Assembly (NCBI GenBank): GCA_048939995.1
Contig: JBHLOY010000008.1
Span: 1-64,000 of the forward strand
DNA length: 64,000 nucleotides
Source of the DNA: Promethearchaeota archaeon
GTDB lineage: Archaea > Asgardarchaeota > Lokiarchaeia > Sigyniarchaeales > SOKP01
Reading direction: 5' to 3'
Below the pieces are notes generated by a model. The model searched no databases, was not told the origin of the DNA, and worked only from the letters and a program-made list of their open reading frames with translations. The stretch's first letter is position 1, and the number at the start of each line of letters is the position of its first letter. Positions 8,021-26,254 of this stretch are shown here, piece by piece. Position numbers and translations under genes: made by a program.

Positions 8021-8596
8021 TTATTCCAAACTACTCAAATTTTTATATTTATAATATAGCTTTTTAATAATTGCTTTAAATGCTTCTATTACTCCTTCCC
8101 CTGTTTTTGCAGAACTAATATAGTATCCGAGAAAATTATTTTCTTTGACTAAATTTTGAACTTCAAGTTCATTTAAATTATTTGGATTAACCAAATCAAC
8201 TTTGTTGGCAAAAATAACTACAGGAATGGCACCACAATACTTTTTTAATTCATCATACCAGTTAGTTATATGTGTGAAGCTATTTTTACCTAACTCATTC
8301 GGTTCAAGACTATATACTATTATTGCTGCTTTGGTTTCTTTATAAAACAGGTGATGTAAAAAATTCAAATCATCTTGACCTGCTATATCCCAAAATATTA
8401 ATCTAATCATATCTTCATTAATTTCTTCATTATATTTTGAAAACTGAGCTCCAATTGTTTTTACATAATCCCTTTCAAATGTTCCTTTCGTGAATTTCTT
8501 AATTAAGGATGTTTTACCCACAGCTCCGTCTCCTATGACTACAATTTTAAATCGAAATTCCTCGTGTTTCATTAGATTTCTAGACCTTAAAATCAA
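8021..8596 (-). CDS. Rab-like small GTPase
   Basis: G1 GDGAVGKTS, G2 TIGA, G3 WDIAGQ, G4 NKVD, G5 SAK. No C-terminal prenylation Cys. Confidence 0.92.
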   Translation of the reverse strand: MILRSRNLMKHEEFRFKIVVIGDGAVGKTSLIKKFTKGTFERDYVKTIGAQFSKYNEEINEDMIRLIFWDIAGQDDLNFLHHLFYKETKAAIIVYSLEPNELGKNSFTHITNWYDELKKYCGAIPVVIFANKVDLVNPNNLNELEVQNLVKENNFLGYYISSAKTGEGVIEAFKAIIKKLYYKYKNLSSLE

Positions 8597-8674: not shown

Positions 8675-10792
8675 TTACTGAAGAATTTTCTTAATAAAGA
8701 TGTTAGTTATCAATGATTCCAGGGTTGGAATATCATTTAATTGAACAGAGGTACTCTTTATGAGAAATTTCTGTAAAGATTGCCAAATATTACTATCATT
8801 TTGTATGGAATCACTAAAACTTTTTATCTTAAATTGCGCAGAATACGAATACCCTTTAAAAATGTAACATATTAAAAATGGTTGAAGGGTGGTCATAAGA
8901 AGAGTATATTGACCAAAAACGGCCCTATCAAGTCCCTCAGAAAATGCTTCATTAATAAAGTAATGAATCGCAGTTAAAAAGCTCCCTAAGATATCATCTT
9001 CAAAGGTAAAATCAGATAAAAATTTTTTAGAGAATAGAAGATTACCACCTTCAGTTAAAATTAAAATCATTACAGGATCTTCTTCGGAATGCTCAGGCGA
9101 TTCAATCATCTGTCTGCTTACCATTTTTTCTATTTGTTCACTCAGACCAGCGAACTTCAAGCGTTCAGATAAAGATGCTTCTGATTCTTTTAATTTCTCC
9201 CATATTTTCATTTGTTTTAGTAATTCATCATGTTCATGTGATATTTGCATTGCTAATCGTTGTATCCCATACGATTCAGCTATCTTTTGAGCTTGAGTTA
9301 ATAATCGCCGGGCTCCTTTCATATCCAAATTTATTAAAGCAAGTTTGGCCTGTAAAAGATAAGTTTCTCCTAAGATCCAAATTGAGTGAGACTTTTCAGA
9401 TAAATATAATAATTGTTCAATGACAGGCTTGACTTCTTCTAATATTTCTAATTCATTAGTAATTTGGAAGTCAGTTAAGAGTAATTCACATAAATTAAGT
9501 AAGGCGATTAAACGATCTTCATAAAAAAACCTCTCATCTTTAAGAAGATTGGTTAATATTTCTTCAGCCATTCCGCGATCTCGAGCTCGGGAACTTGTTT
9601 TCAATACTAAAGCTTTATCAAGAAGATACAGAAAATTATGTCTACCAGGTGATTTGCGCTTTAATCGATGGTTTAATTGCTCAAAATCACGAAGAGAACT
9701 GCGTGCTCTTTCAAGATCATCTATATCAATCAAAATTGGAATTAAAATATCATAATTAAGAGCAAGCCAATAGGAAAATCCCGATTCACGGTTAAGTACC
9801 ATTGCTTGTTCTATACACTCTAATGCACGTTCCAAATCTCCTACCATATGATAACAGAAAGATACACTGGCAAAAGCATCTGCTATAGCCCATTTATAGT
9901 CAATTTCTTTGGACAGTTCTAAACTTTGCTCAAAAAATCTAATACTACGATTAAGTTCTCCTTTTATTGCAAAACTTTCCCCCAGAGTGGCAAGAACTCT
10001 TGCCTCCATAAATTTGTTCTTAATATCATGAAAATTTGCCAAGGATCGCTCACTAACCGTAATACGATGATCTACTTCACCTTTAACCCGATACAACAAT
10101 CCCATATAGTATAGAGTATGTCCAATAACCCCCTTATGACCACTTTCCTCTGCAAAGGTTAAAGCTCGTTTAAAATATTTCGAACTAAGTTCAACATTCT
10201 TTTTTAGACCTATAAATACACGAGCAATTGAATAAAGGGAGTGGGCAATTTCAGTCTTATTTCCAAGTTCTTCTCGTAATGATAAACTTAGCTCATACTG
10301 CTTTATTGCTTGATCAGAATCACGTTTTGCAAAATACAACATTCCTTTAAGCCAAGCTATATACGCTTTTCTCTGTTTGTATTCTGCTTCTACCAACTCT
10401 GATTTTAACGTTTTTAGTAATTCTGCTCCCTCTATAATAATCTTTTGAGCTTCATCTGTTGGATCTCCCTCTTTGATAATCTTTTGAGCTTCATCTATTT
10501 CATCAAGAGATAATAGAGCCTCAGCCATAATTAATAAGGAATCAACTGATAAAATGATTTTTCCTAGTTCTAAACTCTTTTTATATGTTTCTTCGGTAAT
10601 TTTTACAATCTCTTCATGTAAACCTCGTATAGATAGAAGTTCACATTTTAAGAGATGACAAGAGATCATATCATATTGAGAGTGTCCTGCTTCTTCTTCA
10701 AACCCCTTAATTAGTTGGCATGCTTCATCAAGCTCAAAATTATCAATGAGTTGCTTTACATGAACTAGTTTCTGAGGTTTTAAGTAAGACAC
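8675..10792 (-). CDS. TPR + longin-like protein (paralog 2)
   Basis: Multiple TPRs and the conserved C-terminal ILTEGG...EGLDRAVFG...FLICYIFKG module. Confidence 0.8.
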   Translation of the reverse strand: MSYLKPQKLVHVKQLIDNFELDEACQLIKGFEEEAGHSQYDMISCHLLKCELLSIRGLHEEIVKITEETYKKSLELGKIILSVDSLLIMAEALLSLDEIDEAQKIIKEGDPTDEAQKIIIEGAELLKTLKSELVEAEYKQRKAYIAWLKGMLYFAKRDSDQAIKQYELSLSLREELGNKTEIAHSLYSIARVFIGLKKNVELSSKYFKRALTFAEESGHKGVIGHTLYYMGLLYRVKGEVDHRITVSERSLANFHDIKNKFMEARVLATLGESFAIKGELNRSIRFFEQSLELSKEIDYKWAIADAFASVSFCYHMVGDLERALECIEQAMVLNRESGFSYWLALNYDILIPILIDIDDLERARSSLRDFEQLNHRLKRKSPGRHNFLYLLDKALVLKTSSRARDRGMAEEILTNLLKDERFFYEDRLIALLNLCELLLTDFQITNELEILEEVKPVIEQLLYLSEKSHSIWILGETYLLQAKLALINLDMKGARRLLTQAQKIAESYGIQRLAMQISHEHDELLKQMKIWEKLKESEASLSERLKFAGLSEQIEKMVSRQMIESPEHSEEDPVMILILTEGGNLLFSKKFLSDFTFEDDILGSFLTAIHYFINEAFSEGLDRAVFGQYTLLMTTLQPFLICYIFKGYSYSAQFKIKSFSDSIQNDSNIWQSLQKFLIKSTSVQLNDIPTLESLITNIFIKKILQ

Positions 10793-11071: not shown

Positions 11072-11617
11072 TTAATTTGGAATTAAGATTGTACCAGAAA
11101 GCCCATTTATTCCCCAATATGGATCGATGTCCCAGACTATACCAAAAAGCTTCATTCCTTCAAAATCTCCAGCACCTTGCAATATAAATTTACCATTGAG
11201 GGGTCCAACCCCTCCCGTGCCCTTAGCAATAACAGGTCCATAGAACGTTCCTACTAGTCCGTTCCATTCTATATACATTTTTACTTTCCCGATAGTTATA
11301 TATTCGAAAGTAGCTAGGTCCATTTTTACATGTAAATCTAATTCATTATGACCCGTAAATTCAATTCCGTCAATAGTTCCAAAAGTATCTGCAGCTTTAT
11401 AGACTCTCATATGTAGATACTTACCATCCCCCCACATTTCGTAAGGTGCCCAAATTGTTTGGTGTTCTTCACCTTCAAAAGTTAACCTAGTTGAACTCTG
11501 ATTATTCTCATTCGCTGTTACAAAAATACCTGCAAATCCAGTAATCATAGTAATCATTAAGATTGCGAGGATCATTAATTTTGGCACTAATTTTGTTCTA
11601 TTAATTTTCTTCACCAC
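11072..11617 (-). CDS. Secreted beta-rich protein of unknown function
   Basis: Basic N-region plus hydrophobic signal peptide (MVKKINRTKLVPKLMILAILMITMITGFAGIFVTA). Gly/aromatic beta-strand pattern. Confidence 0.75.
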   Translation of the reverse strand: MVKKINRTKLVPKLMILAILMITMITGFAGIFVTANENNQSSTRLTFEGEEHQTIWAPYEMWGDGKYLHMRVYKAADTFGTIDGIEFTGHNELDLHVKMDLATFEYITIGKVKMYIEWNGLVGTFYGPVIAKGTGGVGPLNGKFILQGAGDFEGMKLFGIVWDIDPYWGINGLSGTILIPN

Positions 11618-11635
11618 TTTTTTAATTTTAAATTT

Positions 11636-11756
11636 ATCATCTTTAAGATGATTAATTAAAGGTTGAGATATACTTGCATTTATAGTTAAGCTTTCGATAA
11701 TTTCTCAGAATTTCTGAAAAGAGATGAAAGTTTTGAAAAATAGATATAAATAGAAA
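11636..11756. promoter_or_regulatory. Divergent promoter cassette copy 1: 17-bp palindrome, TATA, spacer, opposite-strand TATA
   Basis: ATCATC-tttaa-GATGAT at 11636-11652, tttata at 11679-84, agctttcgataa, aaaaatagatataaatag. Conserved with copies at 15177 and 16611. Confidence 0.75.
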
Positions 11757-11798
11757 CATATCCAATTTATACCTATAAAACATATTATTCAATTCTCA

Positions 11799-13733
11799 TT
11801 GATTATCGGAAAAATGAATTATCCTTCAAAAGAGATTCTTAGCCCCTCGAAATTGAAAAGAAAGAATTATGAGCATCTTATCCTTTGGATGCTAGCCAAC
11901 AATAAAAGTTGTGAATGGTCTCACTTTGAACAAAAGCCTATTGAAATTCCTATATCAACAATATCACGCCATTTAACAAAATTAATCATGCAAGGATTTA
12001 TAGAAAAACTTGCTAGAGGCCATTACAAAATAACTCCAGAAGGGGAAAAAAGGTATCATGAGTTATCAAAAGAAAGGAAGAGGGAACGAAAGTTAAGTTA
12101 CCCTCCTGAAATAATCTTAAAAAGAGGGAGGATTTATCACCATTGGATTATATGGATGGTATACAATAATGGCTTTTGTAAAAGGTCTGATTTTCTTGAA
12201 AAACCATTGTCTATAAATCAATCATCTTTATCAAAAGTTCTCAGTTCATTAGTTCAAAAGGGATTTATCGTTAGAGAAAATAAAAGATATATAATTACTC
12301 AATCAGGTAAATCAGAATATTCACGGATTCTGCATAATTATGATCTGGACAGACAAACAATCCTAGAAGAGGAAAGAAAAAGAATTGATGAAATTACTAC
12401 AAAAACAGCACAGTTTTTTGATAAATTTAACGTAACTGATGATCTAGTTAAATTTAGATTTCTCAACAATGTATTAAAATTAGATTATTCAAAAGTTGAT
12501 ACAATCTTAAAAGATGACGAAGATTTTTATAAAATTTTACTATTTATTTCAATTAATCATCCGAATTTTTATCCTGATTATCTGTCTCTTGAAAAATTTT
12601 CGAGTTATTATGATATTAAAAAGAGAACACTTGATTTTTGGGTGAATGAGATTATAGAAAGTGACTTATATGACTTAAAGTTTTTTAAATTAGAAATCTC
12701 TCCTAATAAACATTATTATTTTCATTCAGATGAAAAATTAGAGAAGATACTTCGAGCGATTACTGAAGAACATATCGCAACAAACAAATATTTAGAAAAA
12801 TTTGGGAGATTTGGGGGCTTAAATTCCATTATTGATGATATTATCGAAGAACTTTGCCAAGCTGCATTCAATAAGCATTTCAGGGAATCATTGAGGGAAT
12901 TTTTACCAGGATATATAAAATATTTAGCATATAAAATTGAGACAAAAAAAGAGTTAAAAGAAATATATGATAAATTAGAAGGAATAATTTGGCAAAACAT
13001 GACAGAGATTATGCTATCACAGAATTCTGAAACTTTAGAATCTCAATATGAGGAAAAACTTAAAGAAATTGAAAAAGAAATCAAATTGGCCCCAATGGAT
13101 TATGAATTATATAATTCAAAAATACGAATTTTACTCTATTTTAACCAATACACAGATGTATTAAAGGTATTAGAGAAGATGATGAAGCTATTTCCCAAGA
13201 AAGAAATTGATCTTATGATAAAAAAGGCTTACACTCTTAAAAAAGAAAAAGACTTAGATGGAGGATTAGAGATTATTGAAGAATTACTCAAAAAATATCC
13301 AAAAGACAATACTCTTCATAGTTATAAAGCATATTGGTTATCTTACTTGGATCAAAAGCAAGAAGCATTGCAGATTCTTCGCAAACTCATCAAGAGTGAC
13401 CCAGAGAAAGGAATTTATCATGACACATACGGAGAAATCTTAATAAGTTTCAAAGAATATGAAGAAGCCATAGAAGAGTTCCAAAAAGCAATCGACTTTG
13501 ACTCTAATGCTTGGTTTATCAACCAGACTTATATCAAAATTGGAATTTGTTATGCAACACTTGAAAACATTGAATTAGCAATTCAAAATCTTAAGAAAGG
13601 AAAAGAGTTAACAAGCAAAATTGTGAGCGATTTGGAATCAAAAAATAAGTGGTTAGCAGTTGCAGACCTTTTTCTAGCAGATATAGAAGAACAAAGAGAT
13701 TTGTTATCTTCAAATTCATCTATTCAGAATTAG
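11799..13733 (+). CDS. Transcription regulator with tandem winged-HTH domains and C-terminal TPRs (paralog A)
   Basis: Two repeats of YPxE...ILWM..NN..C....F...P..I..STxSxxLxxLxxxGFI......YxITxxG, a third HTH-like segment, and TPRs (YHDTYGEILISFKEYEEAIEEFQKAI). Confidence 0.8.
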   Translation: MIIGKMNYPSKEILSPSKLKRKNYEHLILWMLANNKSCEWSHFEQKPIEIPISTISRHLTKLIMQGFIEKLARGHYKITPEGEKRYHELSKERKRERKLSYPPEIILKRGRIYHHWIIWMVYNNGFCKRSDFLEKPLSINQSSLSKVLSSLVQKGFIVRENKRYIITQSGKSEYSRILHNYDLDRQTILEEERKRIDEITTKTAQFFDKFNVTDDLVKFRFLNNVLKLDYSKVDTILKDDEDFYKILLFISINHPNFYPDYLSLEKFSSYYDIKKRTLDFWVNEIIESDLYDLKFFKLEISPNKHYYFHSDEKLEKILRAITEEHIATNKYLEKFGRFGGLNSIIDDIIEELCQAAFNKHFRESLREFLPGYIKYLAYKIETKKELKEIYDKLEGIIWQNMTEIMLSQNSETLESQYEEKLKEIEKEIKLAPMDYELYNSKIRILLYFNQYTDVLKVLEKMMKLFPKKEIDLMIKKAYTLKKEKDLDGGLEIIEELLKKYPKDNTLHSYKAYWLSYLDQKQEALQILRKLIKSDPEKGIYHDTYGEILISFKEYEEAIEEFQKAIDFDSNAWFINQTYIKIGICYATLENIELAIQNLKKGKELTSKIVSDLESKNKWLAVADLFLADIEEQRDLLSSNSSIQN

Positions 13734-14274
13734 ATAACTTTTTATATTTATAGTATAGTTTTTTAATAATTGCATTAAATGCTTCTATTACTCCCTGACC
13801 TGTTTTAGCAGAAGTAATATAATATCCAAGAAAATTATTTTCTTTTACTAATTCTTGAAGTTCACTTTCATTTAAGTCATTTTGATTAACCAAATCAACC
13901 TTATTAGCAAATATAACTACAGGAACAATACCACAATACTTTTTTAATTCATTGTACCAATTGGAAATATGATTAAAACTATCATTACCCAAGTCGTTTT
14001 CTTCGAGACTATATACAATAATAGCCGCCTTACTTTCCTTATAAAACAAAGGGTGTAAAAAATTGAAATCATCTTGTCCAGCGATATCCCAAAATATTAA
14101 ATTTATTAGATCTCCATCGATTTCCTTATCAAATCTCGAGAATTGAGCACCTATTGTCTTAACATAATCTTTCTCAAACGTTCCTAGGGTATATTTTTTG
14201 ATTAATGAGGTCTTACCGACCCCTCCATCACCAATTACGGATATCTTAAATCCAAATTCCGAAGAATTAGTCAT
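13720..14274 (-). CDS. Rab-like small GTPase (paralog of 8021-8596)
   Basis: GDGGVGKTS, TIGA, WDIAGQ, NKVD, TSAK. Overlaps the convergent regulator's 3' end by 14 nt. Confidence 0.92.
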   Translation of the reverse strand: MTNSSEFGFKISVIGDGGVGKTSLIKKYTLGTFEKDYVKTIGAQFSRFDKEIDGDLINLIFWDIAGQDDFNFLHPLFYKESKAAIIVYSLEENDLGNDSFNHISNWYNELKKYCGIVPVVIFANKVDLVNQNDLNESELQELVKENNFLGYYITSAKTGQGVIEAFNAIIKKLYYKYKKLSNSE

Positions 14275-14333
14275 TAATGTAAAATTAGGAACTGCATAAT
14301 ATAAAATTTTAGCTAAATGGATTTGAGATCCCT

Positions 14334-14405
14334 AAAAAAAGAAAAAAAAAAGGATATAGAATGGGATTATTGGTAATGTACTTTCAAATCCCATCAACTA
14401 TATCC
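14334..14405 (-). terminator. Long hairpin plus U-tract after the secreted gene 14441-15145
   Basis: Nested inverted repeats ggatatag/ctatatcc (14352-59/14398-405) and atgggatt/aatcccat (14361-68/14387-94), then a long T-run on the minus strand. Confidence 0.65.
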
Positions 14406-14440
14406 CGATTTAAAACCAACATGCCCTCTATTATGTACTT

Positions 14441-15145
14441 TTAGTGGAAAAAAACAATTTCAACTGGCCAAAATTGCTCAAGATCCGGGTAGTAATTAGG
14501 ATGACCGTCCTCAAAATCTTTATCAAGCAGTCCTACTTCATTCACTTTTACCTTAACTTCTTCATCAGGATCGAAACCATAGTAGAGTGCCATATTAGGA
14601 TCCAAAAATGTTCCTGTGCCTTTCCCTGTTATGTGTGAAAAAGTCCCTTCGCCTATAGGATCGATTAATGGATCACCCCAAGGGAAAGCCTCGGGGAACC
14701 ATATCTCAAGAAGATTTGGAACAGGATCTCCAAGTTCTCCATCATACAGAATTATTGTTACTTGGAAGATATAATCCATTTCTCCAATTACTAGAATTAC
14801 ATCTGAGGCGATAACCATCGTTGCTCCTTTTACATGTAAATTCACTTGATACATAATTCGTCCATCTTTCAAATCTTTTTCCAGAACAGAACCAGAGGGA
14901 TTGCAGTCAGCAATGCTTTCTAGAGCATCTGGAAATCCGAATACATACCATCCATGAGGGAAAATTGTTAATCCAGATTCAGGGTCTGCCCAAGCGGCGA
15001 TGTTATTATTGGTATCAGTGAAGTCAGAAATTGGCCTTGTTGTCGCGATAGCTAAAACTGAAGAAGAAAAGAAAATGAGTAGAAGTCCCATTGCAGCAAC
15101 TGTCGTCAAACTTGTTATTAATTTTGTCCTTCTCACTTTTATCAA
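14441..15145 (-). CDS. Secreted acidic protein of unknown function
   Basis: Signal peptide MIKVRRTKLITSLTTVAAMGLLLIFFSSSVLAIA, followed by an Asp/Glu-rich mature region. Confidence 0.75.
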   Translation of the reverse strand: MIKVRRTKLITSLTTVAAMGLLLIFFSSSVLAIATTRPISDFTDTNNNIAAWADPESGLTIFPHGWYVFGFPDALESIADCNPSGSVLEKDLKDGRIMYQVNLHVKGATMVIASDVILVIGEMDYIFQVTIILYDGELGDPVPNLLEIWFPEAFPWGDPLIDPIGEGTFSHITGKGTGTFLDPNMALYYGFDPDEEVKVKVNEVGLLDKDFEDGHPNYYPDLEQFWPVEIVFFH

Positions 15146-15176
15146 CTCTTTTTTTTTTAATTATAGATTAGATTTT

Positions 15177-15285
15177 ATCACCTAGATGGTGATCGATGAA
15201 GTCTTGGGATTTGCTTGTATTTATAATTCAGCTTCCGATAATTCCATAGAACTTCCTATTTTTAATGGAATAATGAAAAATACAA
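15177..15285. promoter_or_regulatory. Promoter cassette copy 2 (no adjacent regulator gene)
   Basis: ATCACC-tagat-GGTGAT at 15177-15193, tttata at 15220-25, agcttccgataattccatag. Confidence 0.75.
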
Positions 15286-15413
15286 CTCTATAATTTAAAA
15301 CATAATTCGAGTTATAGGTTTTTTTCGGCTTAATTCAGAAGAATTAATCAATAATGTAAAATTAGAAAAAAAAAGAAAAAAAAATTAATTTGAAATTTTT
15401 CCATTTTATACAT

Positions 15414-15824
15414 TTAGCTTCTCTGTTTGATATAAGCGATAAGTAGAAGAACTAAAATTGCGGACATTATAATAAGATCTAAAATGTTCTGAGAAATAGC
15501 TGTGGGAGTAAGTGTCGGAGCATATATCGCAAGAAGTGTGCCTTCAACGAGTAAGTTAATTGGTACCCATAATGATAAAACTTGATATGCCAGTTTAATC
15601 TTTTCCCAATCCAAATTCTTTTTAAGCAGTACTAAAAGCATGAAAATTACTACTACTAATAAGGCTCCACCAAACATTCTGGGATGATATGGATTTCCCC
15701 AGGTAGGCATATTAATGATTGCTAGGAAAACATCCAGAAAAAATATGACATATACCGCAAAGAATAAAGAAACTATACCGTACATTAAGATGGCAATTTT
15801 TGTAAATTTTTTAATTTCGGTCAT
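15414..15824 (-). CDS. Small 4-TM membrane protein
   Basis: Four hydrophobic segments; PYHPRMFGGAL motif. Confidence 0.75.
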   Translation of the reverse strand: MTEIKKFTKIAILMYGIVSLFFAVYVIFFLDVFLAIINMPTWGNPYHPRMFGGALLVVVIFMLLVLLKKNLDWEKIKLAYQVLSLWVPINLLVEGTLLAIYAPTLTPTAISQNILDLIIMSAILVLLLIAYIKQRS

Positions 15825-15853
15825 TTTTTTTCAACTTAATTGTTTTTAATTGT

Positions 15854-15870
15854 ATCATCAAATTGATGGT
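15854..15870. promoter_or_regulatory. Palindrome copy 3 upstream of the membrane-protein gene
   Basis: ATCATC-aaatt-GATGGT, 29 nt upstream of the ATG at 15824. Confidence 0.55.
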
Positions 15871-15936
15871 AATTGCGTTTTTAAAAAAAAAAGATTTTAG
15901 AATATATTTTTTATCTGTTACAGTTGGTTATGGAAC

Positions 15937-16566
15937 CTATATTTCCATATATTTTGTCAAATAAGTTACCACACCGACAGTCGGAATTCCACCAATCGTA
16001 AGTACGACAGTAGCCCATCCTCCTTGTGGCCAAATAAAAACTTCATTGGGATCTTCTAAAGTGTATTCACCTTTAGGGTTTATCAACATCCAAAAGGAAA
16101 ATGGGACGTATCGGCCTTTTGTATTTGGTAAAGTTATCATACCAACATCTCGAAAGTCTATCTCGATATTTGCATCTGTAGTTTTAAGTTTTCCCTCACC
16201 CATAATAAACCAAAGGTTAACCCACATGACCTCTCTTACTGTGCAATAATATTGAAAGCTATCGCTTATTACTAAAGCATCTTTAAGCTTTCCTTTCATC
16301 GAATAAATTTTCTTTCCTGATTCATCATATAGTTTTGTTTGGAATTCTATTTGTGCCACTGAAGGGACGCTAGAGTTATCAATTATTGCTATGATTGTAG
16401 TAGTAGCTCCAGCTATATCTCCGTCATCCCCTTTTGCTATGGCTAAGATGCGACTAGGGGTATACCCCGCGTTCACTGTTGAAACAATTGCAATGATAGT
16501 TAGTAAAAATGTTGCTGCGATCAGTGTTTTAGTCATTTTTGATTTCTTTTTCACTACTATTTTCAC
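15937..16566 (-). CDS. Secreted protein of unknown function
   Basis: Signal peptide KKKSKMTKTLIAATFLLTIIAIVSTVNA, followed by a beta-rich mature region. Confidence 0.75.
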   Translation of the reverse strand: MKIVVKKKSKMTKTLIAATFLLTIIAIVSTVNAGYTPSRILAIAKGDDGDIAGATTTIIAIIDNSSVPSVAQIEFQTKLYDESGKKIYSMKGKLKDALVISDSFQYYCTVREVMWVNLWFIMGEGKLKTTDANIEIDFRDVGMITLPNTKGRYVPFSFWMLINPKGEYTLEDPNEVFIWPQGGWATVVLTIGGIPTVGVVTYLTKYMEI

Positions 16567-16610
16567 CTCAAATATTTTTTTTATTCTAATCTTTTTTTTA
16601 ATTTAGTTTT

Positions 16611-16732
16611 ATCATCGTATTGATGATTAATTAAATTTTGAGAGATAGTTACCTTTATAATTGAGCTTCCGATAGTTCCATAGTAGTTCCGATTCCTAGT
16701 GGAAGTTCTAAAAAATAGATATAAATAGAAAA
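16611..16732. promoter_or_regulatory. Divergent promoter cassette copy 4
   Basis: ATCATC-gtatt-GATGAT at 16611-16627, tttata at 16654-59, agcttccgatagttccatag, aaaaatagatataaatag. Confidence 0.75.
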
Positions 16733-16778
16733 CAAACCGATCTATATTTTAGCAAATAATGGTTATTTTTCTCAAACA

Positions 16779-18683
16779 ATGGGAAGCATAATTTATCCTC
16801 CAGAAGAAGTTTATAGCCCGCCCAAATTGAAAACGCCCAATTATGACCACATTATACTTTGGATGTTATGTAATAATAATAAATGTAAATGGGCAGATTT
16901 CCGTCAAGAACCAATTGAAATTCCAACTGGCACGTTATCGAGACATTTAGATAAGTTAAAGCGTAAAGGATTCGTAGAAAATTTTACTAGAGGGCAGTAT
17001 AGAATCACTACTGAAGGAAAAAAGAGGTATCATGAGCTATCAAGTGCGAAGAAGAAGTCACATAAACTTAATTATCCTCCTAATATCATCTTAAAAGGAG
17101 GGCGAAATTACTCTCACTGGATTTTATGGATGGTTTATAACAATAATTTCTGCAGAAGGGCTGAATTCCTTGAGGAACCATTATCTATAAATCAATCATC
17201 ATTATCAAAGAATTTGAGTTTGTTATTAGAACAGGGTTTTATAACAAAAGAAGATGGAAAGTATGTAATTACACGAGAAGGTAAATTGGAGTATTCTAAA
17301 ATGCTCCAAAATTATGATTTAGATAGACAAACTGTTTTAGAGGAGGAAGGTAAACGAATTGAAGAGATAACTAAAAAGACAATTCAGTTTTTTGAAGAGC
17401 ATAATATCAAAGATGAAGAGATCCAATTTAGGTTTTTAAATAATATATTAACTTTAGAATATGAAAAAGTAAAACCGTTGCTAAAAGACGAGGAAATTTT
17501 TCGTAAAATTTTACTCTTTCTTTCATTAAACCATCCGAATCAATATCCAAATTTTATTTCCTCTGAAGACTTCTCTAAAACCTATAAAATTAAGAAAACT
17601 ACACTTGATTATTATATTGATGAAATTTCAGAAGGGAAAATATATTCTCTGAGATTTTTTAAACTAAAAAGACCATCGGGTGAGCAATATTACTTTCAAT
17701 CAGAAGGAGTGCTAGAAAAAATGCTTCGAGTGATTACTGAGAATAAAATCACTAAAGTTTCTTATTTAAATAAACTCTTTTCTAAGCCAACGCCAATTTT
17801 AGATATGAGCTACATTATTAATGATATAGCGAACCAGACCTGTGAATTCTTATTTAATAAAGATTTAAAGGCATCAATAAAAGAGTTTTTACCAGATTAT
17901 ATTAAATATCTAGCTTATAAAATTGAAACTAAAAAGGAATTGAAACAAACTTATGATAAATTGGAAGGAATAATTTGGCAGAATGTAGCAGACATTTTTC
18001 AAACACAACTCTATGAGAGTTTAGGAGATCAATTTGAGGAACAAATAGAAGAGATAGATAAGGAAATTGAATCAGAACCTGAAAATCTCAACTTATATTA
18101 TTTAAAGGTTCGAATTTTAACTTATTTTAATCATCATAAAGAAGCGATAAAGTTATTAGACGAAATGTTGAATATTTTTTCTGATAGTGAAAAGGATATT
18201 AAAATTTTAAAAGCTGCTGTCCTTAGAAGGAGGCAGGATATCCAAGCAGGGTTGGAGATTATCGAATCTTTAATCGAAAAATATCCTGAAGACAATGATC
18301 TTCTTAGCTATAAAGCCTATTGGTTTCAATTTTTAGATAAAAAAGAAGAAGCAATAGAAGTAATTCAAAAAGTCATTGAAAGTGAACCCAAAAGGGGAAT
18401 TTATTATGACACTTATGGTGAAATTTTAATGTATTTCGAAGATTATGAAGAAGCAGCCAAGAAGTTTACAAAATCGATGGTCTTGGGAACCCAAGAATGG
18501 TATATTTTCCAGACCTATATCAAGTTAGGTATTTGTTATCGCCAAGTTCCTGAGAAGCGTAATTTAGCAATAGAGAATCTCAAAAAAGGGATAACCCTCA
18601 CAAAGAAAAATGTAAAAGATCCTGAAACAAAGGAAAAATGGCTTTCTATTGCTAATCTTTTTCTATCAGAACTAAACCAGTAG
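16779..18683 (+). CDS. Tandem wHTH + TPR transcription regulator (paralog B)
   Basis: Full-length paralog of 11799-13733 (shared SINQSSLSK, NYDLDRQT, YIKYLAYKIETKKELK, YDKLEGIIWQN, DTYGEIL). Confidence 0.8.
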   Translation: MGSIIYPPEEVYSPPKLKTPNYDHIILWMLCNNNKCKWADFRQEPIEIPTGTLSRHLDKLKRKGFVENFTRGQYRITTEGKKRYHELSSAKKKSHKLNYPPNIILKGGRNYSHWILWMVYNNNFCRRAEFLEEPLSINQSSLSKNLSLLLEQGFITKEDGKYVITREGKLEYSKMLQNYDLDRQTVLEEEGKRIEEITKKTIQFFEEHNIKDEEIQFRFLNNILTLEYEKVKPLLKDEEIFRKILLFLSLNHPNQYPNFISSEDFSKTYKIKKTTLDYYIDEISEGKIYSLRFFKLKRPSGEQYYFQSEGVLEKMLRVITENKITKVSYLNKLFSKPTPILDMSYIINDIANQTCEFLFNKDLKASIKEFLPDYIKYLAYKIETKKELKQTYDKLEGIIWQNVADIFQTQLYESLGDQFEEQIEEIDKEIESEPENLNLYYLKVRILTYFNHHKEAIKLLDEMLNIFSDSEKDIKILKAAVLRRRQDIQAGLEIIESLIEKYPEDNDLLSYKAYWFQFLDKKEEAIEVIQKVIESEPKRGIYYDTYGEILMYFEDYEEAAKKFTKSMVLGTQEWYIFQTYIKLGICYRQVPEKRNLAIENLKKGITLTKKNVKDPETKEKWLSIANLFLSELNQ

Positions 18684-18713: not shown

Positions 18714-20405
18714 TTAAGCAGGAGGCCCTGTTTTTTTTATAAAGATTTCAGTAATTATTGGTTCTAAAGTAGGAATATCAGTTATTTTTATTTTCCTATT
18801 AGCGTGATAAAATTCTTCAAATGTGTCCCACACTTCACTATGACTCTTTAGCATATTTATGAATGATTTCATTCGCTTTTGGGCTAAATAAGATTGTCCC
18901 TTATACACATAGCACATTAAAAATGGTGAAACTGAGTCCATAAGAAGAGTATGTTTACCGAAAGAAGCTCGATCTAACCCCTCAGAAAACATTTCGTGGA
19001 TAAAGGAATTAATTGCGGTAAAGAATCCTCCAAATAAATGATCTTCGAAAGCTTTATCTTTATTAAATGAGTGAGAGAAAAAAGGGATACCTCCCTCAGA
19101 TACGATTAAAAGAAGTACAGGTTGCTCATCTGTAAGCTTTGGATCTTCTATTATTCGTCTCTTTATTATATAATCTATCTGTTCATTCAAACCAGCGAGT
19201 TCTAAACGTTCTGATAAAGAAATCTCTGATTGCTCGAAATTTTCCCATATTTTTTCTTGATTAAGTAATTTATCATGCTCATTTGAAATGTTTGCTGCTA
19301 ATCGTTTGAGACCATATATTTCCGCTACATTTTGTGCCTGAGTTAAAAATCGTTTAGCTTCCTTTATATCCAAAGTTAATAGTGAAAGTTTGGCTTGCAA
19401 AAAATAAGTTTCGGCTAAATATATATATAAATGTTGATCTTCAGCAATATCTAACAACTTTTGAACAAATGGTTGAATCTCATTTATTATCTCGAGGTCA
19501 TTAGTTATCCGAAGTTCAATTAGGTATAAATCACATAACTCTATGATCGCTGTAATCCGTGCCTCACCAAATAATGTATCGTCCATTGCGAGCATTTTAA
19601 ATATTTCTTCTGCTTTAATACGGTCTCTTGCTCGCAGACTTGATTTTAATATCAAAGCCTTAGAACTATAGTACCAAGTTTTAGAAATTTCGTCATCAAG
19701 TTTCTTGAAAAGAGAACGCAATTGTTCAAGATAAACTTTCGCTTCTTTAATATTTCCTTTACTGTTATAAATATAAATTAAGCTAGCTAACCCAACTGGG
19801 AGGGACGGGTTAACCTTAAGGGCTTTTTTAGCATATTTTATTGCTTTATCATATTCTTTCATATGGTAATATTGGTCAGCAATATTATTAAGACTCGCAG
19901 AAATCAATGGTTTACTACCTGTATCTTTAGCTAGTTCATAAGCTTTTTTATTCAATTCAAGAGATGTGTGAATATCTCCCTTAAAATGGTAAATACCAGC
20001 CTTTATCCTTACCAATAAAGATTCTCTTTCTCTAAGATTTATTGAAAGTGTTTCTTTAATAACTTTAAATAGAATCTCTGCTTGCCTAATTATATCTTCA
20101 CTTTGAGTAATGTTGGCCATTATCAAATAGGAATAAGCTTGAATGAGTAAAGCATCTAAAGATGATAATAAATCTCCTAGTTTCTGAAATTCTTGATAAA
20201 TTTCCTTAGCTATCTCGATTGCGTCTAAAAATTTTCCTAATCCACGTAATAGATTAGCTTTAACAAGTTTATATAAGAGCAATTCTTTAGGAGAGAGATC
20301 GCCTCTTTTTTCTAATTCTAAAATAACATGAAAAGCTTCCTTAACTTTACCCTCTTCTAGAAGTTGATTAACTTGAATCAATTCTTTAGTTTCAGGACGA
20401 AACAT
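18714..20405 (-). CDS. TPR + longin-like protein (paralog 3)
   Basis: TPRs; LLIVSEGGIPFFSH...FEDHLFGGFFTAINSF...EGLDRASFG. Confidence 0.8.
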   Translation of the reverse strand: MFRPETKELIQVNQLLEEGKVKEAFHVILELEKRGDLSPKELLLYKLVKANLLRGLGKFLDAIEIAKEIYQEFQKLGDLLSSLDALLIQAYSYLIMANITQSEDIIRQAEILFKVIKETLSINLRERESLLVRIKAGIYHFKGDIHTSLELNKKAYELAKDTGSKPLISASLNNIADQYYHMKEYDKAIKYAKKALKVNPSLPVGLASLIYIYNSKGNIKEAKVYLEQLRSLFKKLDDEISKTWYYSSKALILKSSLRARDRIKAEEIFKMLAMDDTLFGEARITAIIELCDLYLIELRITNDLEIINEIQPFVQKLLDIAEDQHLYIYLAETYFLQAKLSLLTLDIKEAKRFLTQAQNVAEIYGLKRLAANISNEHDKLLNQEKIWENFEQSEISLSERLELAGLNEQIDYIIKRRIIEDPKLTDEQPVLLLIVSEGGIPFFSHSFNKDKAFEDHLFGGFFTAINSFIHEMFSEGLDRASFGKHTLLMDSVSPFLMCYVYKGQSYLAQKRMKSFINMLKSHSEVWDTFEEFYHANRKIKITDIPTLEPIITEIFIKKTGPPA

Positions 20406-20485
20406 CTATTCATAAAGCTTGTTAAATGTAAATTTGGTTGAATATATTTACTATTATAAGCTAATTTATATTTTAAATCTAATCT

Positions 20486-22165
20486 TTAATGAAGCTTTTT
20501 CTCAATAAAAATCTCGTGTATTAGTGGTTCTAAGGAAGGAATATCAGTTATTTGAACTTTCCTATTAACTTGATAAAATTTTTCAAATGTGTCCCACACT
20601 TCACTATGACTCTTTAGCTCATTTATGAATGATTTCATTCGCTTCTGAGCGGAATATGATTGCCCCTCATATATATAGCACATTAAAAATGGTGAAATTG
20701 AGTCCATAAGAAGTGTGTGTTTACCAAAAGAAGCACGATCCAGTCCTTCAGAAAACTTTTCATTAATAAAGGAATTGAATGTAGTAAAGAATCCTCCAAA
20801 TAAGTGATCCTCAAAAGTCTTATCTTCTATAAATGAGTAGGAGAAAAAAGGAATACCGCCCTCAGACACGATTAAAAGAAGAAGAGGCTCCTCATCTGAA
20901 AGTTCTGGGTTTTCTATTAATCGGTTTTTTATCATATAGCCCATTTGTTCATTCAAACCTGCAAATTCTAAACGTTCTGATAAAGATACATTAGAATTTT
21001 TAAAATCTTCCCAGATTTTTTCTTGATTAAGTAATTTATCATGTTCATTTGAAATATTTGCTGCTAATCGCTTTAAACCATAAGTTTCCGCTATATTCTG
21101 CGCTTGTGTTAAAAATTTTTGAGCAATTTTTATATCAGAAGTTAATAATGAAAGTTTCGCTTGTAAGAAGTATGTTTCTGCTAAAACTAAATACATATGC
21201 TGATGGTTAGCAATTTCTAATAATTCATGAATATAAGGTTGTATTTCATTTATTATTCCAAGATCATCAGTCATTTTTAGTTCAGTTAAACATAAATCAC
21301 ACAAGTTTATAATCGCATCAATCCGTTGTTCACTAGATATTTCAGTGTTTAAAGCAATGCTTTTAAAAAGATCTTCTGACTCAATACGGTCTCTTGCTCT
21401 TAAACTAGATTTTAATAATAAAGCCTTTGTATAAATGTAAAGAGTTTTATTTCGTTTAAATTTCTCAGTATAATCACAGAGATTCTTAAGATAAGCTTTT
21501 GCATTTTCAATATCTCCTGTACCAACAAAAATTTCAATTAATGTACCTAATGCCGTTGGATAATATATATTTTTCATAACAGCATCTTTAGCAAAATTTA
21601 TTGCTTTGTCATATTCCTTCATATGAAAGTAAATTTGAGCAATATTGTTAAGACATGCTGATATCATTCTTTTATTCTCTGTTTCTTTTGCTAGTTGATA
21701 AGACTTTTGATTCAATTCTAGTGCAGTTTGAATTTCGCCCTTAAAAAAACTAATTCCAGCTTTTATCCTTGTTAAAAACGATTCTCTCTCTCTTAGATCT
21801 ATTGAAAATGTTCCTTTAATAATTTTAAATAAATTTTGTGCTTTTTCAACAAGATCTTCACTTTTATTTACATTTACCATAAAGAGATACGAATGTGCTT
21901 GAATAGTCAAAGCATCAAAAGATAAAAGTAAATCTCCTAACTTTTGAGACTCTTGATAAACTACTTCAGCATATTCAATAGCATCCAAGTAATTTCCAAT
22001 GAGTCGGAAAAGATTAGCCTTAATAAGGGTATATAACACTCTTTCTTTAAGAGAGAAATCATCTCTTTGTTCAATTTCTAAGATAACTTGAAGAGCGTCC
22101 TTTAGTTTGTCCTCTTCAATAAGTTGATAAACTTGGATCAATTCTTTAATTTCAGGTTGATACAT
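20486..22165 (-). CDS. TPR + longin-like protein (paralog 4)
   Basis: Same architecture; closest to paralog 3. Confidence 0.8.
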   Translation of the reverse strand: MYQPEIKELIQVYQLIEEDKLKDALQVILEIEQRDDFSLKERVLYTLIKANLFRLIGNYLDAIEYAEVVYQESQKLGDLLLSFDALTIQAHSYLFMVNVNKSEDLVEKAQNLFKIIKGTFSIDLRERESFLTRIKAGISFFKGEIQTALELNQKSYQLAKETENKRMISACLNNIAQIYFHMKEYDKAINFAKDAVMKNIYYPTALGTLIEIFVGTGDIENAKAYLKNLCDYTEKFKRNKTLYIYTKALLLKSSLRARDRIESEDLFKSIALNTEISSEQRIDAIINLCDLCLTELKMTDDLGIINEIQPYIHELLEIANHQHMYLVLAETYFLQAKLSLLTSDIKIAQKFLTQAQNIAETYGLKRLAANISNEHDKLLNQEKIWEDFKNSNVSLSERLEFAGLNEQMGYMIKNRLIENPELSDEEPLLLLIVSEGGIPFFSYSFIEDKTFEDHLFGGFFTTFNSFINEKFSEGLDRASFGKHTLLMDSISPFLMCYIYEGQSYSAQKRMKSFINELKSHSEVWDTFEKFYQVNRKVQITDIPSLEPLIHEIFIEKKLH

Positions 22166-22271
22166 TAATTCATAAAGCTTGTTATATGGAAATATTTTTA
22201 GATATATTTACTAATATAAGCTAAATTGGGTTTTAAATATAATGTCTAACTCAATTCTAAATTCTTTTATT

Positions 22272-24236
22272 TTAACGATATGTTTTCTCAATAAAAATCT
22301 CTTTTATGAGCACCTCTAAAGAAGGAATGTCAGATATTTGAATTTTTCTGTTGGATTGATAAAACTTTTCAAATGTGACCCACATTTCTCTAGTACTCTT
22401 TAATTCATGTACAAATGCTTTTATTCGCTTTTGAGCTAAATAAGATTGCCCCTTATACACATAGCACATTAAAAAGGGTGAAATTGAGTCCATAAGGAGC
22501 GTATGTTTGCCAAAAGAAGCTCGATCTAGCCCTTCAGAAAAAGATTCATGAATAAAGGAATTAATAGCAGTAAAGAATCCACCCAACAAATGGTCTTCAA
22601 ATTCTTTGTCTGTAATAAATGAATATGAAAAGTAAGGCACTCCTCCCTCTGATACAATTAAGAGAAATACTGGCTCCTCATCTACAAGCTCTTGGGCTTC
22701 AATACCTTTTTTTTTTACCATATTCTCAAGTTGTTTGTTCAACCCTGCGAGTTCCCAACGCTCAGACAAAGATGCATTTGATTCTTTTAAGTTCTCCCAA
22801 AATTTTATTTGTTTGATTAAATTATCATGCTCATGTGAAATCTTTATCGCTAACCGTTTTATACCATAAGATTCTGCGATTTTTTGAGCTTGAATTAAAA
22901 ACCTTCGAGCAGCATTCAGATCAAAATCTAATAAAGCTAATTTGGCTTGTAATATGAAAACTTCACAAAAAATTAAATAAGAGTGTGATTCTTCAGCGAT
23001 AGTTAATAACCGAGAAATATAGGTATTTAGTTCATGAATAACATCAGCACTTTTATTTATATGATATTCTGAAAGCAGCAAGTCACAGAGATGAATCAAT
23101 GCGTCTCTTATAAGATCAAAAAATATGGTTTTAGTTTCAACAATTTGTTTTAATATCTCTTCAGCCATTGCTTTATCTCGAATTCGATTACTTCTTTTTA
23201 AAATTAAAGCTTTTTCGTATTTGTAAATGATTTCTGTATTTTTATCTTTTTTTTGAATACTTAAATTTTCCAAATGATGGAAATATTGTTGAGCAAGTTC
23301 TATATCTCCCATTTCGAGAGCTACCTCTATCAAACCGCCAAAAATGCCTGCAAACCCCCCATAAATACCATAATTACTTTCGGAAGTCTTTTTACGAAGT
23401 AATAAACATTCCTCAAAATATTCTAATGCTAGACGATATTCACCTTTTCCACAATATAATCCCCCTAAATTGTTATATATTGCTGAAATATACCATATAT
23501 TATTAATTTCTTTGAATATTGTTAAACTCTTCAAATGGTACTTAAAACTAATATCAAGTTCCCCAATAGCATAATACATTACTCCTAAAGCTATGTCACA
23601 AAAACCTAACCAGTAGTGGTTAAACTTAATACTCTTTGCTATTGATTTTGCTTTTTTTGCGTATTCAATAGCAAGATCGTATCGATGTTTTACTTGAAGC
23701 ATAATTTGTGAAACTAACATATTTGCCCAGACAATTTCAAATATATTCCCCACTTGTTTTTGTGAATTAGATATCCATTCTAAACATTTCTCTGCTAAGT
23801 CAGTATTACCTACATATAGATTAATCCAGGCTTTTAACACTCTTAAACGAATTTTACATTTAAATACAATATCATTAGAGAAATTTGAAATATGTTCCAT
23901 TAAAGCCTCAGCTTTTTCAATCAAGTTGGAGGCTTCGTCCCATTTATTACTTAAACCTAATCCAGTGAGCATTAAGAATAAACCATCAAATGACTGGAGT
24001 GGTCTATTGAGTTCCTGTCCTTCTCTATATATTTGATCTCCTAAATCAATAGCTTCTTCATTTTTATTCTGATAAATATATATTAAACCTTTGAGAAATT
24101 GATAATAATCTTTTTCTTGAGAATTAAGAGCTTCGAGCTGGTTATGATCGTTTAATATTTCAAGTGAGTCATCAAGTTTACCAGCATCAAAAAGCTCTTC
24201 CACTCTTGAAAATTTATTTATTTCTGGATCAGGCAT
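22272..24236 (-). CDS. TPR + longin-like protein (paralog 5)
   Basis: Same architecture. Confidence 0.8.
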   Translation of the reverse strand: MPDPEINKFSRVEELFDAGKLDDSLEILNDHNQLEALNSQEKDYYQFLKGLIYIYQNKNEEAIDLGDQIYREGQELNRPLQSFDGLFLMLTGLGLSNKWDEASNLIEKAEALMEHISNFSNDIVFKCKIRLRVLKAWINLYVGNTDLAEKCLEWISNSQKQVGNIFEIVWANMLVSQIMLQVKHRYDLAIEYAKKAKSIAKSIKFNHYWLGFCDIALGVMYYAIGELDISFKYHLKSLTIFKEINNIWYISAIYNNLGGLYCGKGEYRLALEYFEECLLLRKKTSESNYGIYGGFAGIFGGLIEVALEMGDIELAQQYFHHLENLSIQKKDKNTEIIYKYEKALILKRSNRIRDKAMAEEILKQIVETKTIFFDLIRDALIHLCDLLLSEYHINKSADVIHELNTYISRLLTIAEESHSYLIFCEVFILQAKLALLDFDLNAARRFLIQAQKIAESYGIKRLAIKISHEHDNLIKQIKFWENLKESNASLSERWELAGLNKQLENMVKKKGIEAQELVDEEPVFLLIVSEGGVPYFSYSFITDKEFEDHLLGGFFTAINSFIHESFSEGLDRASFGKHTLLMDSISPFLMCYVYKGQSYLAQKRIKAFVHELKSTREMWVTFEKFYQSNRKIQISDIPSLEVLIKEIFIEKTYR

Positions 24237-24295
24237 TTATTTTATTGATTGGATTGTAACCTTATGAATAGAGTAAGCAAATTAGGATTTTAAAT

Positions 24296-26254
24296 CTAGT
24301 GTTTAAAGAGGTTTTTTTGGATAAAAATCTCTTGTATTAGAGGTGCTAATGTAGGTATGTCTCTTATGTTAATTTTCCTATTCATATGATAAAATTTGTT
24401 AAAATCATCCCAAAGTTCTTTATTACTCTTTATTTCCTTTATAAATGATTTTATTCGATTTTGGGCAGAATAAGATTGACCCTTGTATACATAACACATT
24501 AAGAATGGTGAGATAGAGTTCATTAGAAGTGTATATTCTCCGAAAGAGGCTCGATCAAGCCCCTGGGAAAAAATTTCATTAATAAAGGTATTAATAGCAG
24601 TAAAAAACCCACCAAAAAGGTGATCTTCAAATTTTTTATCTTGGATAAAAGACTGAGAGAAAAAAGGTATACCACCTTCTGAAGCAATCAATAAGAAAAC
24701 CGGTTCTTCATCGGAAAGCTTTGGAACATCGGCTTTTCGTTTTTTTGCCATATTTTTTATTTGCTCATCTAATCTGGCAAGTTTCCAGCGTTCAGAAAAT
24801 GGCGCTTCCGTTTCCTTTAACCTCTCCCACAAATTTAATCTTTTAAGCAAATCATCATGTTCAAAAGAAATTTTCATTGCTAAGCGTTTCATATTATAGG
24901 ATTCTGCTATCTTTTGTGCTTGGGTTAAAAACAGTCGAGCCGATTTTATGTCAAAATTTAATAAAGCTAATTTAGCCTGAAGTATGAAGGTTTCACAAAA
25001 AACAAAATATGAATGTTGCTTCTCCGCGATAGTTAATAATTTGGCAATGTAATGATTTATTTCAAACAAAATTTCGCTATCATTATCAATACGGTATTCC
25101 ATGAGAAGTATCTCACAAAGATGGATATGAGCTATGATAATAAGATCAAAAGCTATAGTTTTAGTTTCTACAATTTCTTTGAGTAATTCTTCTGCTTTTG
25201 CTTTATCTCGGATTCTAGAACTTGTTTTCAAAATTAGGGCTTTAGCGAATTTGTAATTAAGTTCAATTCCATCACTTCTTTTCTGGTTATAAATTTCTTC
25301 CAAACGATGAAAATATTTTTGAGCACGCTCGTTATCTCCATGCTCAACAGCTAAGGGAATTAAAGTTCCAATAACGCCTTGAATAGAAACAAAACCTTGA
25401 GGAAGTTGTTCTAAAAGATTTATACTCTCCTCTAAATGTTCCACAGCAAGTTCATATTCACCTCTTTCACCATACATATCCCCCATATTATTTAATAGAA
25501 TTGCGATATTAAAACTACTTTTTATCTTTTTAAATAACTCTAAACTCTTTATGTTATATTTCAAGCTTTTATCCATTTCACCAATAGATGAATAAAATGC
25601 TCCAAAATAGAGTTGACATAGAGCAATCCAGTAGTGATTAAATTTAATTTCCTTTGCAAGAGATAATGCCTTTTTAATGTGCTCCCTACAAAGATCAAAG
25701 TTGCTTTTTACTCGGAATAAATAACTAGCCATTATCAGATTAGCCCAGACGATTTCGAATGACTTTTCGAATTTTTCTTGTGAATTTAAGATCCACACTA
25801 AAGATTTCTCGATCAAATCTACTTTTCCACCACGTAATCCAACAAAAGCTTTTGTTACACTTAAACGAGCTTTTCTTTGGGTTATGAGTTCTTTAGACAC
25901 ATCTGAAATAGATTTTAATACTAACTCAGCTTTTTCAAAAATTTTGAAAGTCTCCTCAAATTTACCAGCTATAGCTAATCCAGTAATAATAAAATATAAT
26001 CCGTCAAAAGATTGGAGATTATCATTACATTTTTGACCTTCTTTATAAATTGTCTCGCCTAAATTAATAAGATCTTCGCCGTAATTAAGATATAAGAAGA
26101 TTAATCCCCTAAGAAACTGAAAATAACTTTTTTGCTGAAGATTAAGCCCCTCATATTGACTCGGATCATTTAATATTTCAAGAGCTTCTTTAAGGTTACC
26201 GTCATCAAAAAGCTCTTCCGCTTTGGTTAACTGCTTTAGCTCTGGATGGGACAT
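24296..26254 (-). CDS. TPR + longin-like protein (paralog 6)
   Basis: Same architecture; N-terminal half closest to paralog 5. Confidence 0.8.
   Translation of the reverse strand: MSHPELKQLTKAEELFDDGNLKEALEILNDPSQYEGLNLQQKSYFQFLRGLIFLYLNYGEDLINLGETIYKEGQKCNDNLQSFDGLYFIITGLAIAGKFEETFKIFEKAELVLKSISDVSKELITQRKARLSVTKAFVGLRGGKVDLIEKSLVWILNSQEKFEKSFEIVWANLIMASYLFRVKSNFDLCREHIKKALSLAKEIKFNHYWIALCQLYFGAFYSSIGEMDKSLKYNIKSLELFKKIKSSFNIAILLNNMGDMYGERGEYELAVEHLEESINLLEQLPQGFVSIQGVIGTLIPLAVEHGDNERAQKYFHRLEEIYNQKRSDGIELNYKFAKALILKTSSRIRDKAKAEELLKEIVETKTIAFDLIIIAHIHLCEILLMEYRIDNDSEILFEINHYIAKLLTIAEKQHSYFVFCETFILQAKLALLNFDIKSARLFLTQAQKIAESYNMKRLAMKISFEHDDLLKRLNLWERLKETEAPFSERWKLARLDEQIKNMAKKRKADVPKLSDEEPVFLLIASEGGIPFFSQSFIQDKKFEDHLFGGFFTAINTFINEIFSQGLDRASFGEYTLLMNSISPFLMCYVYKGQSYSAQNRIKSFIKEIKSNKELWDDFNKFYHMNRKINIRDIPTLAPLIQEIFIQKNLFKH

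Follow-up and report, generated by a model that had tools for sequence, protein, structure and literature searches.

The interval considered here spans positions 11,072 to 18,683 of a 64,000-nucleotide window, which is the start of contig JBHLOY010000008.1 (C38 in our numbering) in the 3.75 Mb, 30% GC genome of a Promethearchaeota archaeon of the Lokiarchaeia (assembly GCA_048939995.1). Two gene pairs are arranged head-to-head in it, each made of a gene for a protein with a signal peptide and a gene for a large regulator: S1 (11,072-11,617, minus strand) faces R1 (11,799-13,733, plus strand; 644 amino acids, with a possible alternative ATG start at 11,814), and S3 (15,937-16,566, minus strand) faces R2 (16,779-18,683, plus strand; 634 amino acids), a paralogue of R1 with 54.9% identity to it. 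A third gene of the first type, S2 (14,441-15,145, minus strand), lies between the two pairs, is co-oriented with S3 and has no regulator of its own. This layout had been claimed in a preliminary description of the same DNA, and the coordinates of the open reading frames (ORFs) agree with it. Left unmentioned there were two genes inside the interval, one for a Rab-like small GTPase of 184 amino acids (13,720-14,274, minus strand), which shares 14 nucleotides with the 3′ end of R1, and one, called M, for a 136-amino-acid membrane protein with four transmembrane segments (15,414-15,824, minus strand). The GTPase genes, treated in that description as background, look like the input side of the system.

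Both regulators are composed of two winged helix-turn-helix (wHTH) domains (residues ~26-91 and ~117-175), a middle domain that matched no known family, and C-terminal tetratricopeptide repeats (TPRs); in R1 the middle domain has ~230 residues and about five TPRs are followed by a capping helix. The two wHTH domains derive from an internal duplication (hhalign probability 99.9). The two or three wHTH domains announced previously come down to two, next to the TPRs: profile comparison gave a probability below 1 for the third, for which the single lead was a weak one from the Atlas (0.81-0.83). Profile searches of Pfam, NCBIfam and the PDB returned generic TPRs and MarR/ArsR-type wHTHs alone, with no RRNPP match and, in the PDB, no close solved relative by sequence, and no description of the family was found in the literature searched, which covered few subscription journals. 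We collected 120 regulator sequences from about 50 genomes and built a tree, in which the R1/R2 clade has 55 members. Regulators occur in 44 of the 54 genomes of the source organism's own family, with up to about ten matches per genome, and 196 other genomes of the phylum yielded one weak match (E 1.6e-18). Because its range is so narrow, the regulator family is a local invention of one Lokiarchaeia family, and no ancestry to a eukaryotic pathway is shown. The TPR groove is nearly invariant over 109 paralogues, and four residues (D544, E548, Q578 and K582 in R2 numbering) show 100% conservation in each of the four clades, suggesting a single ligand common to all of them or a structural role. 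The middle domain is conserved as strongly as the TPRs. The first recognition helix differs from clade to clade and the second is constant.

The promoter said to be shared by the three secreted-protein genes was readily recovered. It is a cassette in which a 20-bp element is separated by a 10-bp spacer from a TATA box, with a 17-bp palindrome, ATCAYC-N5-GRTGAT, 33 bp further on; all three copies are on the minus strand. In the S1 copy (11,636-11,735) an extra half-site (11,735-11,726) precedes the 20-bp candidate operator (11,715-11,696), the TATA box (11,685-11,678) and the palindrome (11,652-11,636). The same four parts are found before S3 (16,611-16,710), at 16,710-16,701, 16,690-16,671, 16,660-16,653 and 16,627-16,611, and the S2 copy (15,177-15,256) has its operator at 15,256-15,237, its TATA box at 15,226-15,219 and its palindrome, with a compensatory change, at 15,193-15,177. 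A TATA-like box for R1 (11,741-11,753, plus strand) stands back-to-back with the S1 cassette, and R2 has the identical 13-mer (16,716-16,728, plus strand). An operator matrix trained solely on 52 copies from other genomes gave 50.8, 43.0 and 26.4 bits at the three sites, the next best score among 7.5 million positions of the genome being 11.4. Between the operator's end and the TATA box there are 10 bp in each of the three copies and in 89 matrix matches overall, i.e. the candidate operator is directly upstream of the B recognition element (BRE) and TATA box, as is the site of an archaeal BRE-adjacent activator. Its half-sites, GAA-N-T(T/A)C, are spaced 11 bp. A strict palindrome was also considered for the operator and rejected, as a family-wide scan gave no peak and the arms pair at about 4 of 8 positions in the R1/R2 clade; with pairing so weak, an arrangement of direct repeats 11 bp apart is no less fitting than an inverted repeat. 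Over 62 copies of the 17-bp palindrome 98% of the cells pair, 9 of them compensatory, a figure that is inflated by kinship; it may be an RNA hairpin or a symmetric DNA site, both of which fit equally. A fourth copy is located upstream of M (15,854-15,870, minus strand), where the matrix scan found no operator match.

We infer that the regulator reads this operator, because the operator variants change in step with the regulator clade, as the first recognition helix does, and because copies of one variant surround a paralogue without TPRs. The latter, a 431-amino-acid protein encoded at C17:229923-231218, is accompanied within 11 kb by four copies of its own variant, one of them before an S2 paralogue, and a relaxed genome scan found no copy of that variant elsewhere. 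The block around this paralogue (C17:220156-235590) contains genes that by eye resemble those of a ubiquitin system.

When the regulator loci are compared, a divergent gene is found at 107 of the 115 regulators with a visible neighbour. In the R1/R2 clade (54 with a neighbour), 21 regulators face a member of the S1, S2 or S3 families, 9 face another exported protein (scanned homologues carry LVIVD, NosD beta-helix or beta-propeller domains), 16 face a ~130-residue protein with four transmembrane segments like M, the other common cargo of the cassette promoter, and 8 have some other neighbour. The same crude rule classes about 7% of the genes of the source genome as exported-looking, as against the 30 of 54 that face these regulators. 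The association of regulator homologues with secreted-protein genes and with the promoter motif, on which the preliminary description had staked its case, is confirmed by this table of neighbours, and so is its proposal of interchangeable cargo behind a conserved regulator-promoter unit: 46 of the 54 regulators face an exported or a four-transmembrane gene, and the motif, at a fixed offset from the regulator start, is present at 45 of the 54. Sister regulators that lie just 0.02-0.03 changes per site from the node joining them have different cargo, M in one genome, S3 in the other. At the loci compared the motif precedes S1 in 3 of 3 cases, S3 in 21 of 21, S2 in 9 of 17 and M in 23 of 39, it precedes none of 94 TPR genes and none of 97 GTPase genes, and extra copies of the cassette stand before inner genes of arrays, while the genes of the local regulon are gained, lost and reordered freely. 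Since the cargo differs at near-identical regulators, and since the cassette recurs before inner genes and never before TPR or GTPase genes, we take the unit to be the regulator with its promoter and the cassette to be the probable mark of a local regulon of envelope genes.

Other regulator clades have other operators and other outputs, and one of them mostly faces a GTPase. Downstream of its promoter, this GTPase-facing clade has a purine-rich stretch and then an inverted repeat, GAGAGCTC...GAGCTCTC, with no consistent ORF, which makes it a candidate non-coding RNA; the repeat was seen upstream of L057 7994, L058 14348, L120 8986, L126 8980, L072 3879 and L125 6986 (locus and position). Long paralogues of 820-990 amino acids at L149, L150, L152, L155, L157 and L158 face charged proteins of about 80 residues that start with MAQV or MVQV.

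What is exported from these loci does not resemble a precursor of small peptides. Structure prediction of the secreted proteins, proposed earlier as a check, gave beta-rich folds for S1, S2 and S3, their signal peptides being called from hydropathy and an A-x-A pattern only. The cargo domains have 150-200 residues (the exported neighbours have 181-234 amino acids) and belong to three unrelated families: common ancestry of the mature parts was looked for with BLAST and profile comparisons and rejected for want of any match, in line with the absence of mutual similarity reported before, and inside each family the mature part is conserved. S1, for which there are 33 homologues, has a DUF3224-like beta-barrel, matched in the Atlas to a DUF3224 cluster with a TM score of 0.83 over 135 residues; the likeness to DUF3224 (PF11528) is one of structure models, whereas by sequence there is next to no match (best Pfam E 0.07, seen in 1 of the 33 members) and S1 has a signal peptide, and no function follows from it. 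The S2 model (predicted local distance difference test, pLDDT, 86.2) had no clear match in fold searches (best Z 5.6; best TM score by query 0.39), which does not by itself show a new fold. S3 (pLDDT 87.5) is an eight-stranded antiparallel beta-barrel-like domain of no specific family, with OmpA-like, PliC-like and other small barrels tied among its top matches (best Z 9.5, root mean square deviation 4.3, 123 residues aligned), and Foldseek gave no match at E <= 0.001. From these models S1, S2 and S3 would seem to be functional proteins, secreted or at the surface, rather than propeptides, and as a guess from fold class alone they may bind ligands or inhibit enzymes at the cell surface. The named homologues of all three carry the labels Promethearchaeota, Lokiarchaeota and other Asgard.

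S2, with six paralogues elsewhere in the genome, and S3 are also found away from any regulator, behind other promoters. The unlinked paralogues (C6:12837, C26:8368, C28:282080 and C17:346217) have a different upstream motif in common, AATGTTAAATA. The distribution of S3 is uneven (6 of 25 genomes of the source organism's family), and a strong match to it (E 3e-92) was found in a genome of another Asgard family, at G142:C39:49872-50471, when most genomes of the source organism's family are without S3; gene transfer is possible. A fourth secreted family of about 180 amino acids, at six loci (e.g. L075:9834-10382), has the cassette promoter, an S1-like N-region and no Pfam match.

These cargo data bear on the interpretation offered in the preliminary description, i.e. 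that the secreted proteins are cut outside the cell by a nearby S8 protease (677-4189, minus strand) and that a peptide from the mature part returns to the TPRs, as in RRNPP cell-cell signalling. Several features speak for it: RRNPP receptors bind a paired small secreted peptide in their TPRs (PMC12700828), and the RRNPP(A) systems of Bacillota (PlcR/PapR, Rgg/SHP, PrgX, NprR, AimR; PMC12700828) have, like R1 and R2, an N-terminal DNA-binding domain with about five C-terminal TPRs, an adjacent exported gene and many paralogues per genome; the head-to-head layout fits as well, and the protease gene is 7 kb from S1. However, RRNPP receptors have one HTH, whereas R1 and R2 have two wHTHs and the 230-residue middle domain, and the neighbour of R1 and R2 is a folded or membrane protein in place of a small propeptide. 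In RRNPP the pocket is expected to vary with the peptide; here the groove, with its four residues fixed in all clades, is invariant and the cargo, three unrelated families of folded domains, is free to swap even between regulators as close as those carrying M or S3. As to the S8 protease, it was rejected as cargo processor, no homologue being present at 100 other regulator loci (reaching up to 9 kb upstream); its residues 463-754 match a repeat found in long tandem arrays elsewhere in the genome, e.g. C28:345900-362700. The R1/R2 system thus appears not to be a member of RRNPP, and signalling by cargo-derived peptides in the form first proposed is very improbable.

A looser form of peptide control has to be weighed separately, in which the groove binds a peptide that could compete with the GTPase for it: in the sister clade the product of a 23-30-codon ORF, in the R1/R2 clade a fragment of the basic signal peptide. 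Pheromones of Enterococcus, which derive from lipoprotein signal peptides, offer an analogy. In the sister clade 15 of 21 regulators do face such micro-ORFs, preceded by a ribosome-binding site, with a basic N-terminus and no hydrophobic core, and followed after the stop by a T-run, a finding that leaves a peptide ligand plausible for the regulator family. Examples are C37 ~24,250-24,440 (minus strand, upstream of an 822-amino-acid paralogue at 24513) and the loci L057, L059, L061, L062, L064, L067, L072 and L074; at some loci two or three micro-ORFs follow one another. Genes for oligopeptidase F and an oligopeptide-binding protein adjoin some loci, and an RTKLVPK-like N-region is common to S1, some S2 proteins and the fourth secreted family. 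Against this, the search for a micro-ORF behind the promoter drew a blank at all 54 R1/R2-clade regulators, and the micro-ORFs of the sister clade, lacking a hydrophobic export core, diverge widely while the groove stays constant. The similar basic N-regions pointed out in the preliminary description, [RK][TS]K[LIVM], are indeed present in S1, S2 and S3, but they are no mark of the cassette: they occur in 9 other of the 203 signal-peptide-like proteins of the genome, among them S2 and S3 paralogues without the cassette promoter. The shared N-region is simply explained if promoter, leader and N-region are copied as a block. Altogether, we regard peptide control in any such form as improbable, if less so than its first version.

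The steadiest neighbour of the regulator is one clade of Rab-like GTPases. The GTPase at 13,720-14,274 has a Pfam Ras match with E 1e-40 and intact G1-G5 motifs (P-loop, switch I Thr, DxxGQ, NKxD and SAK are conserved); its best PDB matches are Rab23, Rab21 and Thor-Rab, and near its C-terminus there are none of the prenylation cysteines typical of eukaryotic Rabs. Among loci with enough flank, a GTPase of this clade is found within 9 kb of 26 of 31 R1/R2-clade regulators and of 29 of 42 others, and it stays near although the gene order around the regulator varies (convergent, divergent or at the end of an array). In the source genome, the four closest of 40 small GTPases have a distinctive switch II in common and all lie at most 4 kb from a regulator. 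Over 101 genomes the copy numbers of regulator and GTPase clade are correlated (rho 0.86; 0.68 and 0.67 within two genera), and where the regulator is missing a genome has 0-2 copies of the GTPase clade.

A model of R1 in complex with this GTPase, made for the GTP/Mg state only, scored 0.64 (0.64, 0.64 and 0.68 in the individual runs), the best of three controls being 0.00. Among 80 solved complexes 58 pass the mark used, compared with 2 among 110 mismatched pairs; these counts apply only roughly to the present model, for which our own alignments were supplied and a ligand was included. At least 82% of the contacts are common to the runs, and the partner's pLDDT is at least 85. On the regulator side the predicted contacts line the TPR groove and the capping helix (446-452, 481-484, 512-518, 546-552, 583, 587 and 616-631 of 644); on the GTPase side they comprise residues 36-47 and 67-76, i.e. 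switch I and II, the usual effector surface. The 24 long paralogues offer a natural control. The six with a neighbouring GTPase of the clade keep Q576, K580, I583, K617, W618 and I621; in those without one, K617 and I621 are lost in 18 of 18 and Q576 or K580 in many, while D542 and E546 are kept throughout.

We therefore favour, with a probability of nearly 60%, the interpretation that R1 and R2 are GTPase-gated transcription factors of a local regulon of swappable envelope genes. Several points weigh against it. The contrast between the 6 and the 18 long paralogues rests on few lineages. The controls of the complex model were unrelated proteins, none of them a non-cognate GTPase, so that a pass says nothing on specificity, and it may partly reflect likeness to known complexes of TPR proteins with small GTPases, such as Rac-p67phox. 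Kinship, tandem co-duplication, genome completeness and capped scoring all push the copy-number correlation upwards, and the GTPase clade is present in single copy in genera that have no regulator. Finally, conservation at the predicted interface does not exceed that of the remainder of each domain (0.69 versus 0.67; 0.75 versus 0.75), a test that we would consider less telling than the loss of contact residues in the natural control.

The neutral outcome of that conservation test would also suit an ordinary local regulon, in which the regulator binds the operator, its input is a small molecule at the middle domain or some other protein, and the GTPase and TPR genes are co-duplicated or indirectly linked. 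The conservation of the 230-residue middle domain fits such a scheme, as does the fact that TPR-less and long paralogues keep the divergent-promoter layout with no GTPase nearby (none adjoins 5 of the 6 TPR-less paralogues). It is harder to reconcile with a complex model that passes with an interface at the switch regions, with contact residues kept only where a GTPase adjoins, and with a GTPase that stays near while gene order varies; we consider the ordinary regulon unlikely, though well worth keeping in mind.

If R1 and R2 are gated by the GTPase, the following scheme can be proposed. They would act as one-component transcription factors, the tandem wHTHs binding the GAA-N-T(T/A)C half-sites 11 bp apart. 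The operator ends 10 bp short of the divergent promoter's TATA box, a position that suits an activator recruiting TFB; activation is preferred to repression because the operator adjoins the BRE and TATA box, the sign of control being a guess from position and to that extent a further weakness of the interpretation. The extra half-site next to the regulator's own TATA box makes autoregulation likely. Cassette copies would place nearby genes for exported beta-domain and four-transmembrane proteins in a small local regulon. The TPR groove would be the input site and, according to the model, its likeliest ligand the neighbouring Rab-like GTPase, bound through switch I and II in the manner of an effector. 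The envelope genes would then be switched by the nucleotide state of the GTPase, which the adjacent TPR proteins may set as guanine nucleotide exchange factor or GTPase-activating protein, and the secreted proteins would be the output, not the signal. That all this amounts to a complete prokaryotic small-GTPase path ending at DNA, in which TPR proteins set the GTPase state, the GTP form binds the TPR groove and the tandem-wHTH factor switches exported and membrane genes, is a more demanding claim, for which we would put the chances slightly short of even.

The genes for these putative upstream partners surround the interval. A TPR protein with a conserved C-terminal alpha/beta domain (8,675-10,792, minus strand) lies between S1 and a second GTPase of the same clade (8,021-8,596, minus strand; 77% identical to that at 13,720-14,274), the last gene of the array behind R1. 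Five further TPR proteins (18,714-28,817, minus strand) form an array convergent on R2; the C-terminal domain could be aligned in four of them, and the last (26,460-28,817, minus strand) carries a C-terminal TIR domain (Pfam TIR_2, E 9e-16). The C-terminal domain of the neighbouring TPR proteins had no sequence match in Pfam or the PDB, and its earlier identification as a longin was not confirmed.

Among characterized systems, ours, to judge from the model, works most like the TPR effector of a small GTPase with a DNA-binding output. The closest example is provided by Myxococcus xanthus, where the Ras-like GTPase MglA acts via the C-terminal TPRs of its effector SgmX, to which it binds specifically in the GTP form (PMC7668184). 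Common to both is a prokaryotic small GTPase with a C-terminal TPR effector, the binding of R1 to its GTPase being modelled only; in contrast, SgmX consists entirely of TPRs and its output is the activation of type IV pili, whereas R1 and R2 carry two wHTHs and have a promoter motif, and their GTPase is Rab-like. An archaeal wHTH activator whose operator abuts BRE/TATA is TFB-RF1 of Pyrococcus (PMC5937170), but activators of this type have no TPR input domain and no GTPase partner, and activation by R1 and R2 is suggested by operator position. A direct link of this kind from a small GTPase to a transcription factor was not found in the literature searched. Transcription is also controlled by a nucleoside triphosphate switch combined with TPR repeats and a DNA-binding domain in STAND regulators of the MalT and AfsR type; there the switch is an ATPase in the same chain, whereas that of R1 and R2 would be a separate GTPase of the Ras superfamily.

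Lokiarchaeia encode dozens of Rab-like GTPases, the compartments served by Rabs in eukaryotes are not known in the two cultured strains, and it has been described as difficult to infer the partners of these GTPases from gene order (PMC10933270). At the present locus the GTPase and its proposed effector can both be named, their interface has been modelled, and there are a candidate operator and a set of output genes. The predicted link thus gives the eukaryote-like GTPases of Asgard archaea a testable role in gene control. If it is true, at least one Asgard Rab-like lineage serves transcriptional signalling and not membrane traffic, which would bear on what Rab-like switches did before eukaryotes.

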